From positions 875 through 64,874 of the forward strand of contig JAZSDC010000034.1 in the NCBI GenBank assembly GCA_045530935.1: 64,000 nucleotides of DNA, given 5' to 3'. Shown one piece after another: positions 11,172 through 15,741 of the stretch. This stretch comes from Candidatus Enterousia sp. Its GTDB lineage: Bacteria; Pseudomonadota; Alphaproteobacteria; Rs-D84. How positions within the stretch are numbered: the first letter of the stretch is position 1; each line of letters begins with the position of its first letter. Both the position numbers and the translations under genes were made by a program. The notes under the pieces were generated by a model. The model saw nothing but the letters and a program-made list of their open reading frames with translations. It was not told where the DNA came from and searched no databases.

Positions 11172-11247
11172 GGGGACATAGCTCAGTTGGTAGAGCAAAT
11201 GACTTTTAATCATTGGGTCCAGGGTTCGAGTCCCTGTGTCCCCACCA
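11172..11247 (+). tRNA. tRNA-Lys (anticodon UUU)
   Basis: I folded the cloverleaf by hand: acceptor GGGGACA/TGTCCCC, anticodon loop CTTTTAA, T-loop TTCGAGT, 3' CCA encoded. Confidence 0.9.
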
Positions 11248-11252
11248 GAAAT

Positions 11253-11400
11253 TCAACGACCGCTTGCTGGTCGTTTTGTTTTTATTGAAAAAAATTGCAT
11301 TTTATGATACAATACACATATTCAGCGGACGACATTTTGTCGTCTTTTTTATTGCCCGCACACGCGGGTGTTTTTTATTTAATCAAAAGGAGTTGTTATG
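11253..11400 (+). repeat. Copy 1 of a ~140-bp promoter plus dual-hairpin leader module
   Basis: It reads: terminator hairpin aacgacc..ggtcgtt+T-run, -35 TTGAAA at 11285-11290, 17-nt spacer, -10 TACAAT at 11308-11313, hairpin gacgac-atttt-gtcgtc+T6, hairpin cccgc-acac-gcggg+T6, then an RBS and ATG. A near-identical copy lies at 12317..12456. Confidence 0.6.
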
Positions 11401-11413
11401 AGCGATATTTGAT

Positions 11414-11665
11414 ATGGGACTTATGAGTAATTTTAGAAACGTAGGAAAAATGGTTCAAAAAACATTAAATGATTCAATGGGTGAAAGTTTGAAAGTGGAC
11501 GGAAAGATTGGAAATAATACAATCGGGGCGCTAAATAATATTCCAGAAAATAAAGTCGATAAATTTATGGATGACTTAAAAGAAAACAGATTAGAATATT
11601 TGCAGAGACTGCCGGATTGGAAAAAATATGGTGACGGTTGGAAAAATCGTACAAATACATATTGA
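11414..11665 (+). CDS. Peptidoglycan-binding (PG_binding_3-like) domain fragment, the C-terminal module of GH108-type lysozymes/endolysins
   Basis: ...VDGKIGNNTIGALNNIPENKVDKFMDDLKENRLEYLQRLPDWKKYGDGWKNRTN matches the usual C-terminal ending of GH108+PG-binding proteins (..W..FG.GW..R). The catalytic part is missing from this ORF. Confidence 0.5.
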   Translation: MGLMSNFRNVGKMVQKTLNDSMGESLKVDGKIGNNTIGALNNIPENKVDKFMDDLKENRLEYLQRLPDWKKYGDGWKNRTNTY

Positions 11666-11697
11666 TTTTGCAGTTCTTTGTTTGCCATAATGTTCGT

Positions 11698-12195
11698 ATG
11701 AAAAAGATGATGATTTTATTGACTTTATTGATTCCTGTGGCTTCATGGGGGCATCCAATCGACGCTTGGATTGATAAAATCATTGAATATGAAACAGCTA
11801 ATAAAAGAACTAACCCTGCCCTTATAAATGCATACGCTGTGAATCAGGAAAAACTGGATATGTATCGGGCGGCCCATCCACGTTTTAATTTCCCAGAACA
11901 TATCAAGGATTTAACGGAACAACAGGCAGAACAAATATTGTATTATTTTTGGGATAATTACAGATTCAGTGATTACAAGTATGACGAGATACTGGAACGG
12001 GTATGGGATTTGATGATACACATGTCAATGGCGGATTTAGATATCGCAATAAACAACTGTATCCGCAAATACTATGATTTTGATGAAAGTTTTTATGCGT
12101 CATTTGGCTCAATTGCATCGGTGCAACTGCTGAACGGAATGGCGCCAAAAAATATTCCGGATTTTCTGACCATATTAAATGCGGTCCAGTATTAA
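11698..12195 (+). CDS. Secreted GH108-like lysozyme-family domain protein
   Basis: Signal peptide MKKMMILLTLLIPVASWG. The motif IKDLTEQQAEQILYYFWDNYRF...VWDLMIHMSMADLDIAINNCIRKYY resembles the GH108 N-terminal domain. Confidence 0.45.
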   Translation: MKKMMILLTLLIPVASWGHPIDAWIDKIIEYETANKRTNPALINAYAVNQEKLDMYRAAHPRFNFPEHIKDLTEQQAEQILYYFWDNYRFSDYKYDEILERVWDLMIHMSMADLDIAINNCIRKYYDFDESFYASFGSIASVQLLNGMAPKNIPDFLTILNAVQY

Positions 12196-12316
12196 ATATC
12201 ATACACAAAGTTTTTGCTATGAATTTGCTTTTGTTGGCATTTATTTCTGGTGATTTTCATTGATTTTGAGTGATTTTCGGGGCGGGGCACATATAAAGAA
12301 AAATATAACAATATTC

Positions 12317-12456
12317 AACAACCGCCTGCTGGTCGTTTTGTTTTTATTGAAAAAATTTTCGTTTTATGATATAATACGCATATTCAGCGGACGACATTTT
12401 GTCGTCTTTTTTATTGCCCGCACACGCGGGTGTTTTTTTACCAAAAGGATTAAACA
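12317..12456 (+). repeat. Copy 2 of the promoter/dual-hairpin leader module
   Basis: Same architecture as copy 1, with -35 TTGAAA at 12347-12352 and a consensus -10 TATAAT at 12370-12375. Its 5' hairpin is degraded. Confidence 0.6.
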
Positions 12457-12620
12457 TGAACAAATTATCAAACAATATACTAAACCTCATGCGCAGCGAC
12501 GCATATTTAAACAGCAACAATCCCAACCACGCTGCTGTCGCCAAACAGATTAGAATATTTGCAGAGACTGCCGGGTTGGGAAAAATATGGTTGTATTTCC
12601 TTGATTATAATTTCCGTTGA
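12456..12620 (+). pseudogene. Frame-shifted remnant related at the DNA level to the 3' end of the 11414..11665 ORF
   Basis: The run aacagattagaatatttgcagagactgccgg.ttgg.aaaaatatggt is shared with 11585..11640 but is read in a different frame here. Confidence 0.4.
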
Positions 12621-12732
12621 AACATGACAACAATTGTGTTATAGTGATACTGATACAGGCGAATATCTGTGTCAAGGCGGATTTAAATCCTAACTTGTCC
12701 TGCCTAAAATGGACTAAAAAAGGAGCATTTAA

Positions 12733-13194
12733 ATGAAAACTTTAAAATATACTGTTCGGGCACCTGTTGCCGATTATCAATCAATTTCCTGTCTGTTTAA
12801 TAATCTAGATTTGATTTTAAGATATCGTGGTGAAATATTATCACAGGAAAGTTTTAGTAATATTTATATCCCTGGTATGTACGTTGGTGGGTTGTACGTT
12901 GGTATGTATCTTTTATCGCTGGGGGATATATTGACATTGTGGGAAAAAACAGAATGGCACACATCAGAAAAATACTATTTTAATATTATTGGTACACCGC
13001 TTAGTGGGATGAATACAGCGCATTGGTACAATACCAATACACAGCAAGTTGAATCAGGGGCATACAATAATGGCAGACTGCAATTCTTGGGGCTGGCGCG
13101 CCCTGCGTTCGATCAGGTACGCCTAAGACGCACAACCACACACAGTGATTTATCTATTTTTGATTTGGTAAAACATTTGTCACGCCAACAATAA
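12733..13194 (+). CDS. Hypothetical protein (153 aa)
   Basis: Intact ORF with no recognised domain; it sits inside the tRNA-Lys-adjacent islet. Confidence 0.4.
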   Translation: MKTLKYTVRAPVADYQSISCLFNNLDLILRYRGEILSQESFSNIYIPGMYVGGLYVGMYLLSLGDILTLWEKTEWHTSEKYYFNIIGTPLSGMNTAHWYNTNTQQVESGAYNNGRLQFLGLARPAFDQVRLRRTTTHSDLSIFDLVKHLSRQQ

Positions 13195-13199
13195 AGAAC

Positions 13200-13472
13200 C
13201 TAGGTAGTCGTTTTTAGTTCATTTAATGTGTCTTGGAATATTTTTGCGAATTCCGCAGGGTTAGTATTTGTTGCTTTTAAAACCTTGATTAATGTTTCTG
13301 TGCTAATCCATCTTGGTTGCCCATTGGCCGAGAATTGCTTGCTGTAATTAAAGGAAGTTGCGTCCAGTCCACTTTTACGCGCCAGACCAGAACAACTTAC
13401 ACCGTTGTTTTTGGCGATGCGGTATATACTTTGCCATAATGCCTTGTGATATTCCATGTTATTTCCTTTCAT
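13200..13472 (-). CDS. Ner/Nlp-like small DNA-binding regulator (Mu Ner / SfsB family HTH), paralog A
   Basis: ...SGLARKSGLDATSFNYSKQF...PRWISTETLIKVLKATNTNPAEF follows the Ner/Nlp pattern (G.spTTL.nAl.r...P..e.i.kaL....eei) as I recall it. Confidence 0.5.
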   Translation of the reverse strand: MKGNNMEYHKALWQSIYRIAKNNGVSCSGLARKSGLDATSFNYSKQFSANGQPRWISTETLIKVLKATNTNPAEFAKIFQDTLNELKTTT

Positions 13473-13599
13473 TATTCAAATAAATCAGATATATACATTT
13501 TAGATAAAAGTGAAATTTGGTCAATGTAAACAATTATAGGTTGAATATTGCCTTTTATATGTTTGCTGTGTGTCAAAAACTTATCCGAATCGTTTTTTA

Positions 13600-13860
13600 T
13601 TAATTTGTATCTGTTTTTGATTTTTTATGATGTTTGTCACAAATTTGTCCAAATTCTTCCATAGTCATATTCAAAGCATCCAGAACCTTGACAACCGTTC
13701 TAAATGATGGATATCTTTGCTTGCCGTATTCATCGTTGCGCTTACTTTTATTGAATATTGTCGCATCTAATCCGCTGTTTATTGCCATCCTAGAAGGGGA
13801 GGTCTGTTGTCGCGCCGCCAATTCGTCTATTGCATCCCACACATTGTGTTGGCTAATCAT
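13600..13860 (-). CDS. Ner/Nlp-like small DNA-binding regulator, paralog B
   Basis: ...MAINSGLDATIFNKSKRNDEYGKQRYPSFRTVVKVLDALNMTMEEF aligns residue for residue with paralog A. Confidence 0.5.
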   Translation of the reverse strand: MISQHNVWDAIDELAARQQTSPSRMAINSGLDATIFNKSKRNDEYGKQRYPSFRTVVKVLDALNMTMEEFGQICDKHHKKSKTDTN

Positions 13861-14020
13861 GATCGTCTCTTTTATATTTATTGCATATGGGGCTTATTAT
13901 GCAATAAATCCTAGACGGTGGCAATAGGTTGGTTTTCTTATTTTGTATACATTGAAATCAATCTGTGCGCGATATGTTGGTGTAAAATCGTGTTTGTTTT
14001 TTGCCTTGTGATGACTTATT

Positions 14021-14197
14021 TTATGTTCTGGCAAAAATCTGATTATCTTCGATTTTCACCGCTTGGCCATTAATCATTATATTTTCTGCAACAACTGGTG
14101 TGCTGGTGTTTATGTTAAACAGAACAGGTGTCTCTAGATTTGACAATGCTAATGTCGTCCACATAGAAAATAAAACAACAACAAATAAACGGTTCAT
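14021..14197 (-). CDS. Small secreted peptide (58 aa), below the ORF-track length cutoff
   Basis: A strong RBS, GGAGGAGCAACC, precedes the ATG at 14197. MNRLFVVVLFSMWTTLALSNLETP... looks like a signal peptide. I translated the frame by hand. Confidence 0.45.
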   Translation of the reverse strand: MNRLFVVVLFSMWTTLALSNLETPVLFNINTSTPVVAENIMINGQAVKIEDNQIFART

Positions 14198-14379
14198 AGG
14201 TTGCTCCTCCTATCTCACTCAGATTACGCCGTCATAAAACGATACAAAATATTTATATTCTTGGGCAAAAATTTTTTGCCAATAAAATTAAATGTTATAA
14301 ATTCTATGTTGCAAAAATGCAAAATCCGTTTAATATAATAAACTTAAAAATGATAAACACTAACCTTGGGGGAACAAAC

Positions 14380-15741
14380 ATGCCAGCAAAAACAGTAAAT
14401 GATATCGTTGCCTTGTGCAAGCGTCGTGGTTTTATCTTTACCGGATCTGAAATTTATGGCGGTCTGGGCGGCGCATATGACTATGGTCCATATGGCGTTG
14501 AATTAATGAAGAATATCCGTAACGCATGGTGGAATTCTATGATTTATTCACGTGATGATATCGAAGGGTTAGATGCGGCATTAATATCAAATCGTTTGTT
14601 ATGGAAATATTCTGGGCACGAGGCAGGCTTTTCCGATCCATTGGTTGAATGTAAAAAGTGCGGTACTCGCATGCGCCAGGATAAAATGAAGGATATGACC
14701 AAATGTGACAATTGTGGCAGCACAGATATCACCGAACCGCGCGCATATCAGTTAATGATGGGGTTGTCTATTGGCGCGACTGCTGATGGCGCGGTTAATG
14801 CGTACCTGCGTCCAGAAACCGCAACAACAACATATACAAATTTCAAAAATGTTTTGGATGCCAAACCACATAAGCTGCCATTTGGTATTGCGCAAATCGG
14901 CAAAGCGTTCCGGAACGAGATTTCGCCACGTGGATTTGTGTTTCGTATGCGTGAATTTGAACAGGCAGAAATGCAGTATTTTGTAAATCCGTCTGATGAT
15001 GAACAGTATCACAAAATGTGGATGGATGCACGTATGGCATGGTGGATAAACGAATTGGGAATACCTGCTGAAAAGTTGCGTTTCATGCCACACGAAAAAT
15101 TAGCACACTATGCCAAGGCTGCGGTTGACATTGAATATGAATTTCCAGATGGTTTTGATGAAGTCGAAGGTATTCATAATCGCCAAGATTTTGACCTGGG
15201 GTCACATACCAAGGCACAATCTGATTTTAAGATTAATGCAAATGTATTAGAAAACAAGGACAGTACAACTAAATTGTCATACAGCGATCCGCAAAGCGGT
15301 CAGAATTTCTTGCCATATGTAATTGAAACCGCAATGGGGGTAAATCGCGCAATGCTGGCAGTGATGATTCAGGCATACGAAGAAGAAGACCTGGGCGAGG
15401 GCAAGTCGCGTACTGTCTTGAAATTAAAACCATCTCTATCACCAGTCAAGGCTGCGGTGATTCCATTGGCACGTAATGTCCCAGAATTGTTAAACATTTC
15501 AAATGATATTGTGGCAACTTTGCGCAAAATGGCGGTTGGACGCATAGAATTGGAAAATTCTGGCAATATCGGTAAAAATTATCGTCGTCATGATGAAATT
15601 GGCACACCGGTATGCATAACTGTTGATCACCAGACAACAGAAGATGGTACTGTCACATTACGTTATCGTGACACAATGGCACAAGAACGTGTCACAATTG
15701 CAGATGTCCCATCAAGGGTATTGCAGATAATAAATTCATAA
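14380..15741 (+). CDS. glyQS: Glycine--tRNA ligase, dimeric alpha2 type
   Basis: MPAKTVNDIVALCKRRGFIFTGSEIYGGLGGAYDYGPYG... is the alpha2 GlyRS N-terminus. GGGGGA precedes the ATG at 14380. Confidence 0.9.
   Translation: MPAKTVNDIVALCKRRGFIFTGSEIYGGLGGAYDYGPYGVELMKNIRNAWWNSMIYSRDDIEGLDAALISNRLLWKYSGHEAGFSDPLVECKKCGTRMRQDKMKDMTKCDNCGSTDITEPRAYQLMMGLSIGATADGAVNAYLRPETATTTYTNFKNVLDAKPHKLPFGIAQIGKAFRNEISPRGFVFRMREFEQAEMQYFVNPSDDEQYHKMWMDARMAWWINELGIPAEKLRFMPHEKLAHYAKAAVDIEYEFPDGFDEVEGIHNRQDFDLGSHTKAQSDFKINANVLENKDSTTKLSYSDPQSGQNFLPYVIETAMGVNRAMLAVMIQAYEEEDLGEGKSRTVLKLKPSLSPVKAAVIPLARNVPELLNISNDIVATLRKMAVGRIELENSGNIGKNYRRHDEIGTPVCITVDHQTTEDGTVTLRYRDTMAQERVTIADVPSRVLQIINS

Follow-up and report, generated by a model that had tools for sequence, protein, structure and literature searches.

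Here we describe an interval of ~3 kb (positions 11248-14296) between a tRNA-Lys(UUU) gene and the glycyl-tRNA synthetase (GlyRS) gene glyS of a Candidatus Enterousia genome, within a contig stretch of 64 kb that is called the window throughout. Enterousia belongs to the order Rs-D84 and its genomes are reduced, mostly below 1 Mb (PMC12306168). The interval contains two copies of a promoter and terminator cassette, two fragments of a muramidase gene, an intact gene for a secreted GH108-like protein, a pseudoknot RNA preceding the gene of a 153-amino-acid (aa) protein and, on the opposite strand, two small genes for helix-turn-helix (HTH) proteins (Table 1). A preliminary description of this DNA had seen in it a degraded prophage or genomic islet whose lysis and regulatory genes stand in scrambled order next to tRNA-Lys. 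By comparing the window with related loci and metagenome contigs (numbered L002-L116), we found that the interval is indeed an islet with a decaying lysis-type gene; it is probably a mosaic of three kinds of unit, namely a muramidase module, a gene under a candidate riboswitch and a set of regulators, and not a prophage.

Table 1. Features of the tRNA-Lys/glyS islet, its two anchors and a related cassette elsewhere in the window
Feature	Position	Strand	Basis
tRNA-Lys(UUU), left islet anchor	11172..11247	+	ARAGORN; Rfam tRNA 77.5 bits
Terminator hairpin (AACGACCGCTTGCTGGTCGTT and T-run), copy 1, 3' of tRNA-Lys	11251..11283	+	terminator scan
Control cassette copy 1	11285..11376	+	promoter TTGAAA-17-TGATACAAT 11285-11313; hairpins 11327-11345, 11353-11370
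Four-codon mini-ORF (ATGAGCGATATTTGA), made by deletion junction and 1-nt insertion	11398..11412	+	comparison with intact L004 gene
PG_binding_3-only 3' remnant, 83 aa	11414..11665	+	Pfam PF09374 32.9 bits
Secreted GH108-like paralogue, 165 aa, intact, degenerate catalytic motif	11698..12195	+	96 homologous clusters
Terminator copy 2 behind a degenerate copy of tRNA-Lys start and 5' flank (TTTTCGGGGCGGGGCACATA)	12270..12345	+	
Control cassette copy 2	12347..12438	+	promoter TTGAAA-17-TGATATAAT 12347-12375; hairpins 12389-12407, 12415-12432
Fusion pseudogene	12456..12620	+	comparison with intact L004 gene
Promoter (TTGAAA-17-TATAGT with TG) and 5' hairpin (12651-12674) of 153-aa gene transcript	12617..12674	+	
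H-type pseudoknot RNA, candidate SAM-II/V-like riboswitch	12675..12725	+	25 distinct homologues, covariation
153-aa protein, conserved family, no detectable structural relative	12733..13194	+	AF2, family searches
XRE-like HTH protein, 90 aa	13200..13472	-	weak Pfam matches
XRE-like HTH protein, 86 aa, paralogue of 90-aa HTH	13600..13860	-	weak Pfam matches
58-aa ORF, hydrophobic N-terminus, this genome only, doubtful gene	14021..14197	-	
Conserved glyS upstream region and glycyl-tRNA synthetase gene, right islet anchor	14297..15741	+	
Third cassette (6603-6490) and 188-aa Mtd_N-domain (phage tail-fibre-like) gene (5922-6488), outside islet	5922..6603	-	

A search with GlyRS (gene at 14380-15741) retrieved 80 loci at 84-97% protein identity, all of them in animal-gut metagenome-assembled genomes of Candidatus Enterousia or unnamed Alphaproteobacteria. 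The order of an MFS gene, a 225-aa gene, tRNA-Lys and glyS is kept in eleven sister species, and tRNA-Lys lies directly upstream of the interval, as the preliminary description had stated. Two of these species (L022 and L031) have an empty site, with ~160 nt between tRNA-Lys and glyS, and in the other nine the gap holds 0.8-5.8 kb of differing cargo: a PLD-type nuclease (L003 and L021), a repeat protein (L002), an orthologue of the 86-aa HTH gene and nothing else (L032), the 153-aa gene with both HTH genes (L005), the muramidase pair with the 153-aa gene (L004), a gene resembling ABC-F ribosomal-protection proteins together with a 101-aa gene, the 153-aa gene and the HTH pair (L081), or 5.8 kb with NERD, methylase and other genes (L025). 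The ABC-F protein of L081 (3703-5328) passes the NCBIfam ribosomal-protection-like model (407.5 bits against 380) and is possibly cargo of the antibiotic-resistance type. Related genomes thus differ in the presence or absence of cargo at a single site, the mark of a genomic island at a tRNA gene. Base composition shows no break across the islet. The interval is a true accessory islet at a tRNA-linked recombination hot spot; the islet and its decaying endolysin-type gene are in themselves ordinary.

The borders of the islet units carry a repeated sequence. The tRNA-Lys terminator (AACGACCGCTTGCCGGTCGTTT) is common to the occupied genomes only and recurs at unit borders, and a border alignment revealed a different tRNA-Lys terminator in the empty-site genomes L022 and L031. 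Within the window a degenerate tRNA-Lys 5' flank adjoins the second terminator copy, and a junction of the same kind forms the right islet border in L003 and L021. This pattern fits repeated insertion and accretion at the tRNA-Lys site, as judged from the border sequences. The islet resembles tRNA-linked genomic islands in its insertion directly 3' of the tRNA gene, its presence/absence polymorphism, its unrelated accessory cargo, the tandem accretion of units between repeated borders and, in one relative (L113), a recombinase beside the module. Unlike such islands, it lacks an integrase and a repeated tRNA 3' end, spans only 3 kb, and its repeated border consists of the tRNA terminator and promoter cassette. 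In seven of the loci (L002, L003, L004, L005, L017, L025, and L032) a GC-rich insert of ~100-130 nt lies directly 3' of tRNA-Lys (7580-7756 in L004), followed by a second tRNA-Lys 3' end and a terminator copy, which in L004 form a 45-nt direct repeat. This insert, which is absent from the window and has no credible match in an Rfam scan of the L004 copy, may be a relic or a miniature integrative element.

The fragments on either side of the secreted-protein gene can be read against L004 and L032, where a single open reading frame (ORF) of ~285 aa combines a MuF motif, a GH108 domain and a PG_binding_3 domain, and begins with the N-terminus found at window position 12456. Both domains of the intact sister-genome enzyme exceed their Pfam thresholds (GH108 58.5 bits, PG_binding_3 27.4 bits) and the EGGY motif is present; the Phage_Mu_F match (26.0 bits) falls below the 29.6-bit cut-off and covers the last 50 profile positions only. 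Among PHROG families, the enzyme matches endolysins (5e-29) and, through its MuF motif, head-morphogenesis proteins (2e-8). Its GH108 and PG_binding_3 part is ~30% identical to endolysins of Rhizobium, Agrobacterium and Pelagibacter phages, and its closest solved relatives by sequence are GH108 'secretion activator' proteins and Salmonella TtsA/Sen1395 (7DNP, 2IS5, 2IKB, and 6V40). The intact enzyme has no signal peptide. The intact sister gene thus shares with the known GH108 and PG_binding_3 muramidases (phage N4 gp61-type endolysins, TtsA, 'secretion activator') both domains, the EGGY motif and a sequence match to 7DNP, 2IKB and 6V40, and differs from them in its N-terminal MuF-type zinc-ribbon motif and in its partnership with a secreted pseudo-enzyme paralogue; the window keeps only fragments of it.

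On the evidence of these alignments, the PG_binding_3-like ORF and the 'frame-shifted duplicate' reported earlier are the 3' and 5' wrecks of one muramidase gene. The first of them was correctly described as a binding module without a catalytic domain: the 83-aa ORF matches PG_binding_3 (PF09374) at 32.9 bits against a cut-off of 24.6, over profile positions 4-75 of 76, and aligns at 95% identity with residues 188-274 of the intact protein in L004. Its dN/dS ratio relative to L032 is 0.68, calculated from 8 changes only. In this copy, codons 1 to ~186 are gone via an AAAGGA/AAAGAA microhomology, and the deletion junction with its 1-nt insertion creates a mini-ORF that stops 1 nt before the ATG of the 83-aa ORF. 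In the second copy, the first 31 muramidase codons (12456-12548) run through an AAACAG microhomology into 49 nt of the gene's own 3' end (12543-12591), which are 96% identical to the end of the PG_binding_3 ORF and out of frame, as had been noted; an unrelated sequence, the upstream region of the 153-aa gene, follows. The two copies would have been broken by microhomology deletions after duplication of the module, an order of events that is a reconstruction. The native order is enzyme, then paralogue, and the seemingly scrambled arrangement would be the product of duplication and deletion: the duplication would have taken in the module and, upstream of it, the terminator, promoter and double-terminator cassette, after which the deletions would have destroyed the enzyme gene in both copies, leaving a PG_binding_3-only ORF, a 5'/3' fusion wreck and one intact paralogue under selection.

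Three points weigh against this account. The order of the duplication and deletion events is reconstructed only, the left junction between cassette 1 and the PG_binding_3 remnant is present only in the source contig, and re-initiation may still yield a functional product from the 83-aa ORF. The uniqueness of the left junction also bears on whether the duplicated cassette and gene fragments are an assembly artefact, a chimera of strain variants. The contig is metagenome-assembled, and the related contigs L111 and L112 both break inside the 49-nt repeat. We regard such an artefact as very improbable, since the right junction (12591/12592) recurs at 97% identity in L111 and L112, which come from independent samples, and since the cassette copies differ at 7 of 126 positions, each leading to a different and consistent microhomology deletion junction. 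Loss of the enzyme gene is also recurrent: it occurred independently by the deletions in the window, by frameshifts in L113-L116, and in L025 by formation of an enzyme/paralogue chimera. In the chimeric ORF of L025 (6011-6907) the catalytic N-terminal part of the enzyme (EEAGY...) passes, at a HPRFNFPEHIKDL segment common to both proteins, into the C-terminal part of the paralogue; the chimera apparently arose through a deletion by recombination between the two paralogous genes.

The gene between the two wrecks is intact. Its 165-aa product has a Sec-type signal peptide, in agreement with its earlier description as a secreted GH108-like protein, and the family relationship is borne out by profile comparison: the paralogue family aligns with the GH108 domain of the L004 enzyme over 114 columns (hhalign probability 97.1%, E 5e-11). 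As a GH108 enzyme it falls short, with a Pfam match (PF05838) of 15.6 bits against a cut-off of 21.2 that is limited to profile positions 31-83, the C-terminal two thirds, and with an EGGY/DPxDxGG catalytic region that is variable or deleted across 26 members of the family. The family profile matched no GH108 structure by sequence, and the AF2 model of the paralogue is too uncertain (pLDDT 63) for a fold search to be meaningful. The paralogue gene always lies directly downstream of an enzyme gene or an enzyme wreck, is under strong purifying selection (dN/dS 0.04-0.17), and is kept where the enzyme has been lost.

Intact enzyme-paralogue pairs occur in five further chromosomal neighbourhoods, often with a DUF488 gene downstream of them. 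In L088-L090 a 141-aa DUF488 gene directly 3' of the paralogue is often a third member of the module; DUF488 is absent from the window, and a 261-aa minus-strand ORF in the corresponding position of L025 was taken for DUF488 on inspection only. The module DNA is 92-94% identical to that of L004 and L032, compared with 68-85% for the flanking core genes, and in L032 the module occupies a different locus. In L113 (2266-4993), the cassette, the muramidase gene with frameshifts and an intact paralogue come after a tyrosine-recombinase fragment of 194 aa and an ORF of 62 aa, and the segment from cassette to paralogue lies between 95-nt direct repeats (87% identical) abutting tRNA-Leu(CAA). Because its DNA is more alike between species than the flanks, its location differs, and a recombinase and repeats accompany it in L113, the muramidase module appears to be mobile, yet nowhere does it lie inside a recognisable prophage. 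This first unit of the islet would be a phage-derived two-gene module moving between chromosomal sites and encoding a putative cytoplasmic muramidase and a secreted, catalytically degenerate GH108-like paralogue.

A temperate phage that integrated at tRNA-Lys and left only its lysis and regulatory genes would account for the phage ancestry of the enzyme, with its ~30% identity to phage endolysins and its MuF motif of the PHROG head-morphogenesis type, for the position of the islet beside a tRNA gene with a second tRNA-Lys 3' end in L004 and L005, and for the recombinase next to the module in L113. We nevertheless consider a decayed prophage unlikely. The window has no integrase, attachment-site (att) repeat, or structural, replication or packaging gene: 11248-14296 contains no integrase-like ORF, a tblastn search of the window with the L113 recombinase gave no hit, and the tRNA-Lys 3' end occurs there once when up to three mismatches are allowed, with no partial copy anywhere in the window that might represent an attR. 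In every context inspected, intact modules are self-contained and have their own promoter, with no other phage genes in the surrounding 5-10 kb (L004, L032, and L088-L091). No close relative of the muramidase was found in IMG/VR, and in a PHROGs scan only the muramidase was matched, the other seven proteins scanned, among them those of the riboswitch-linked gene and the HTH pair, giving no phage family.

Two further readings of the pair concern its function. In one, the muramidase with its MuF tag would serve as an antibacterial effector and its secreted GH108-like partner as the periplasmic immunity factor, so that the window keeps an orphan immunity gene. The constant position of the paralogue immediately downstream, its signal peptide, the strong purifying selection on it and the repeated loss of the enzyme with retention of the partner are what such a pair would leave. 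The enzyme carries only the last 50-90 residues of MuF (26 bits, below the 29.6-bit Pfam cut-off), the module is not part of a prophage head module in the contexts inspected, which have no neighbouring phage genes, neither variable C-terminal toxin domains nor a delivery route is evident, and an immunity protein paralogous to the very toxin it counters would, to our knowledge, be without precedent. Toxins that carry a MuF domain and have an immunity gene downstream form a described family (PMC5576092). We take this reading as a tentative possibility. The other, a domesticated endolysin in the style of TtsA or the 'secretion activator' proteins, has the pair opening peptidoglycan locally for the host, with the loss seen here being ordinary decay in a reduced genome. 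The identity of the closest solved relatives by sequence (TtsA/Sen1395) and the widespread, chromosomal distribution of the module speak for it; it is rather doubtful all the same, since no cargo or holin gene is linked to the pair, the enzyme has no signal peptide, and frequent pseudogenisation and relocation speak against a core function.

The second unit would consist of the 153-aa gene with its own promoter and a Shine-Dalgarno sequence (AAGGAG, 12720-12725) at the 3' edge of an H-type pseudoknot, an RNA element that the preliminary description had not noticed. Its stem P1 pairs AGGC (12675-12678) with GCCU (12702-12705), P2 pairs UUGUCC (12695-12700) with GGAC-U-AA (12711-12717), and AUUU (12681-12684) is a candidate third strand. 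The segment 12677-12745 is 80-92% identical to the 5' untranslated region of metK in L028, L042 and L052. Among the related loci, the core pattern occurs only upstream of the 153-aa family and metK, and a metagenome scan brought the total to 25 distinct copies, preceding metK (9), members of the 153-aa family (11), a 110-aa family (3) and other small ORFs (2); more than a third of the copies are hence associated with a gene of S-adenosylmethionine (SAM) and methionine metabolism, and metK itself is not in the 64-kb window. The small ORFs outside the 153-aa family, in L093, L097, L105, L098 and L108, are of three unrelated types, of ~110 aa (MEDLQKLKQYGCF...), 71 aa and 136 aa, for which no family match was found.

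The pseudoknot is supported by covariation in P1. Pair 8:37 is GC in 14 copies, CG in 10 and UA in 1, and pair 10:35 is CG in 21, UA in 2 and UG in 2, with none of the 25 copies unpaired; these two P1 pairs change on both sides, and the covariation score of 0.134 compares with 0.060 in shuffled alignments (0 of 500 reach the observed value) and at most 0.025 in slid controls. The Rfam model of SAM-V (RF01826) gives a weak full-length match, with 16.1 bits against a gathering threshold of 41 and an E-value of 2.3 in 181 nt. In an alignment with the Rfam consensus, the RNA has, without variation, the nucleotides that contact SAM in SAM-V, namely the bulged U, the U:A pairs, the AUUU strand, the A50 equivalent and the A-tail that leads into the Shine-Dalgarno sequence; the equivalent of A18, however, is C, and GG is inserted before the strand. 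In the SAM-V crystal structure, P1, the AUUU strand, P2 with the bulged U and the A-tail are the elements forming the SAM pocket (PMC6061858). In the minimum-free-energy fold, GGAU pairs with the 5' strand of P2, which suggests a competing ligand-free structure.

These features make the RNA at 12675-12725 a probable candidate for a new compact SAM-II/V-like riboswitch. It shares with SAM-V and SAM-II (RF00521) an H-type pseudoknot of ~50 nt that ends at the Shine-Dalgarno sequence, the P1 sequence AGGC/GCCU, the P2 sequence UUGU.C/G.AC-U-AA with its bulged U, the AUUU strand after P1, the A-rich tail into AAGGAG, occurrence in Alphaproteobacteria and linkage to metK. It differs from them in scoring 16 rather than 41 bits, in the GG between P1 and the U-rich strand, in the C at the A18 position, in a longer L1 that could form its own hairpin or pair with the 5' strand of P2, in an L3 of 5-7 nt with no P3, and in that most copies precede small proteins of unknown function and not methionine-pathway genes. 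The SAM/SAH riboswitch of Rhodobacterales (RF01727), a minimal pseudoknot OFF switch on alphaproteobacterial metK (PMC6411933), is likewise a minimal H-type pseudoknot upstream of metK in Alphaproteobacteria; it has no detectable sequence or covariance-model similarity to the Enterousia RNA, and the conserved nucleotides and the host order (Rs-D84) differ. If SAM is the ligand, as we infer, the element would act as a translational OFF switch of the SAM-II/V type, in which bound SAM docks the U-rich strand into P2 and occludes the ribosome site; at low SAM, the 153-aa gene would be translated together with metK.

Several observations count against a SAM riboswitch. The SAM-V match lies far below its threshold (16.1 against 41 bits) and is not listed in a search of 29 kb, and an Rfam scan of the whole islet returned the tRNA only. 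The C occupies the position of A18, the partner of the methionine-contacting A50 in SAM-V, and the GG insertion and the short L3 with no P3 are unlike SAM-V. P2 shows no covariation and is uninformative in this respect, because the search pattern fixed it. Finally, the genes other than metK that follow the RNA have no known link to SAM.

The 153-aa ORF had been described as an orphan. The ORF exists, and it belongs to a conserved family with 31 close clusters and 144 remote relatives, some of which are fused to an N-terminal XRE-type HTH domain or to C-terminal ankyrin repeats. Its AF2 model is confident (pLDDT 91.5, pTM 0.87), and fold searches with it against PDB and BFVD gave no match, as did searches of the protein against Pfam, PHROG, PADLOC and NCBIfam. 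The idea that it might be a SAM lyase was rejected as far as the PDB and BFVD fold libraries go. In the window, L005, L081 and L111 the gene and the HTH pair face each other tail-to-tail, and this placement, taken with the fusions to HTH domains, is a hint of a functional link between the 153-aa protein and the HTH proteins.

The two HTH genes would make up the third unit, a pair of paralogous XRE-type regulators on the opposite strand. That they are minus-strand paralogues had been recognised (39% identity, E 2e-15); their earlier assignment to the Ner/Nlp type did not hold, since no HTH_35 match was obtained at E<=1, and the only Pfam matches, weak and below cut-off, were to the XRE-type families HTH_26 and dnstrm_HI1420. 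Neither protein had a match in NCBIfam or, by sequence, in PDB, and PADLOC returned nothing for the small proteins. Orthologues of the 90-aa gene adjoin the 153-aa gene in L005, L081 and L111, and the 86-aa gene has a dN/dS ratio of 0.06 relative to L111. L111 is the closest relative, with 97% identity across the 153-aa gene and both HTH genes; its sequence departs from that of the window at 14041, so that the right islet edge is also variable. L111 has a 288-aa gene (1455-2321) where the window has the doubtful 58-aa ORF.

The cassettes in front of the muramidase wrecks form part of a 126-nt direct repeat (11251-11376 and 12313-12438) that had also escaped the preliminary description; the copies are 94% identical, with a 54-nt core at 100%. 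In each, a terminator hairpin is followed by an extended -10 promoter close to consensus, then by two terminator-like hairpins that carry T-runs, and last by a ribosome-binding site, and the RNA of cassette copy 1 folds at -24.5 kcal/mol (z -3.4). Each wreck sits behind one copy. The signature TTGAttttttN7-9TTTRTGATAYAAT followed by one or two terminator-type hairpins was found in ~19 places in 1.4 Mb of relatives and the window. It precedes muramidase genes (twice in the window, and in L004 and L088-L091), Mtd_N genes (window, L002-L004, L022, L031, L032, and L071) and Phage_lysozyme genes (L020 and L024). The hairpin sequences differ between places while the architecture is kept, and the initial transcribed regions are not conserved. 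A search of IMG/VR with the promoter pattern returned two unrelated phages only, neither with the hairpins. The genes behind the cassette in L044 and L068 were considered as swapped toxin domains; they are short and have only the N-terminal motif in common with the enzyme, which is no evidence for such a swap.

The third cassette of the window has a promoter that overlaps the stop codon of an 816-aa gene and is followed by two terminator hairpins. The N-terminus of the 188-aa protein behind it is a phage Mtd_N domain (48.6 bits), and at least seven sister species keep this arrangement in synteny. The 816-aa protein (6600-9050, minus strand) is rich in coiled coils, has no match in Pfam, PHROGs or NCBIfam, and is only 28-42% identical between sister species, though its neighbours are conserved.

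The hairpins of the cassette are not simply the terminators of the preceding gene, because the tRNA site and L091 have separate terminators upstream of them. We infer that the hairpins are subject to regulated or leaky read-through, and that the cassette would hold the phage-derived genes silent or at a low level unless read-through of the terminators is induced. A partial precedent is the lambdoid late promoter PR' with tR' and Q, which shares a strong promoter, intrinsic terminator(s) within ~15-60 nt and a position upstream of phage genes of lysis or structural type; the Enterousia cassettes are instead many and dispersed, no Q-like gene or pause/binding element was identified for them, and their function is a matter of analogy throughout. 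Read-through control is also called into question by the lack of an identified antiterminator gene, for which no genome-wide search was made, and the hairpins might instead stabilise the 5' end or act as partial attenuators, or a short RNA might be the product.

Taken together, these elements allow a broader and speculative proposal, which as a whole we hold to be improbable: that the RNA represents an undescribed compact SAM-II/V subclass with a regulon of metK and unrelated small islet proteins (the 153-aa and 110-aa families and others), serving as a low-SAM alarm for conflict or stress proteins, for example after attack by a phage SAM lyase, and that a cassette-defined read-through regulon of domesticated phage genes (tail-fibre-like proteins, lysozymes, and MuF-muramidase) exists beside it in a genome of less than 1 Mb. 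The individual parts carry their own significance. An RNA with the SAM-II/V core escapes the Rfam models and, if SAM binding proves true, would extend the class and provide a handle on regulation in a gut lineage whose organisms resist culture. As the RNA stands mostly before small proteins of unknown function, it offers a testable link between SAM status and unknown biology, and the recurrence of the cassette before phage-derived genes suggests that, in a very small genome, domesticated phage parts are controlled by a common logic.

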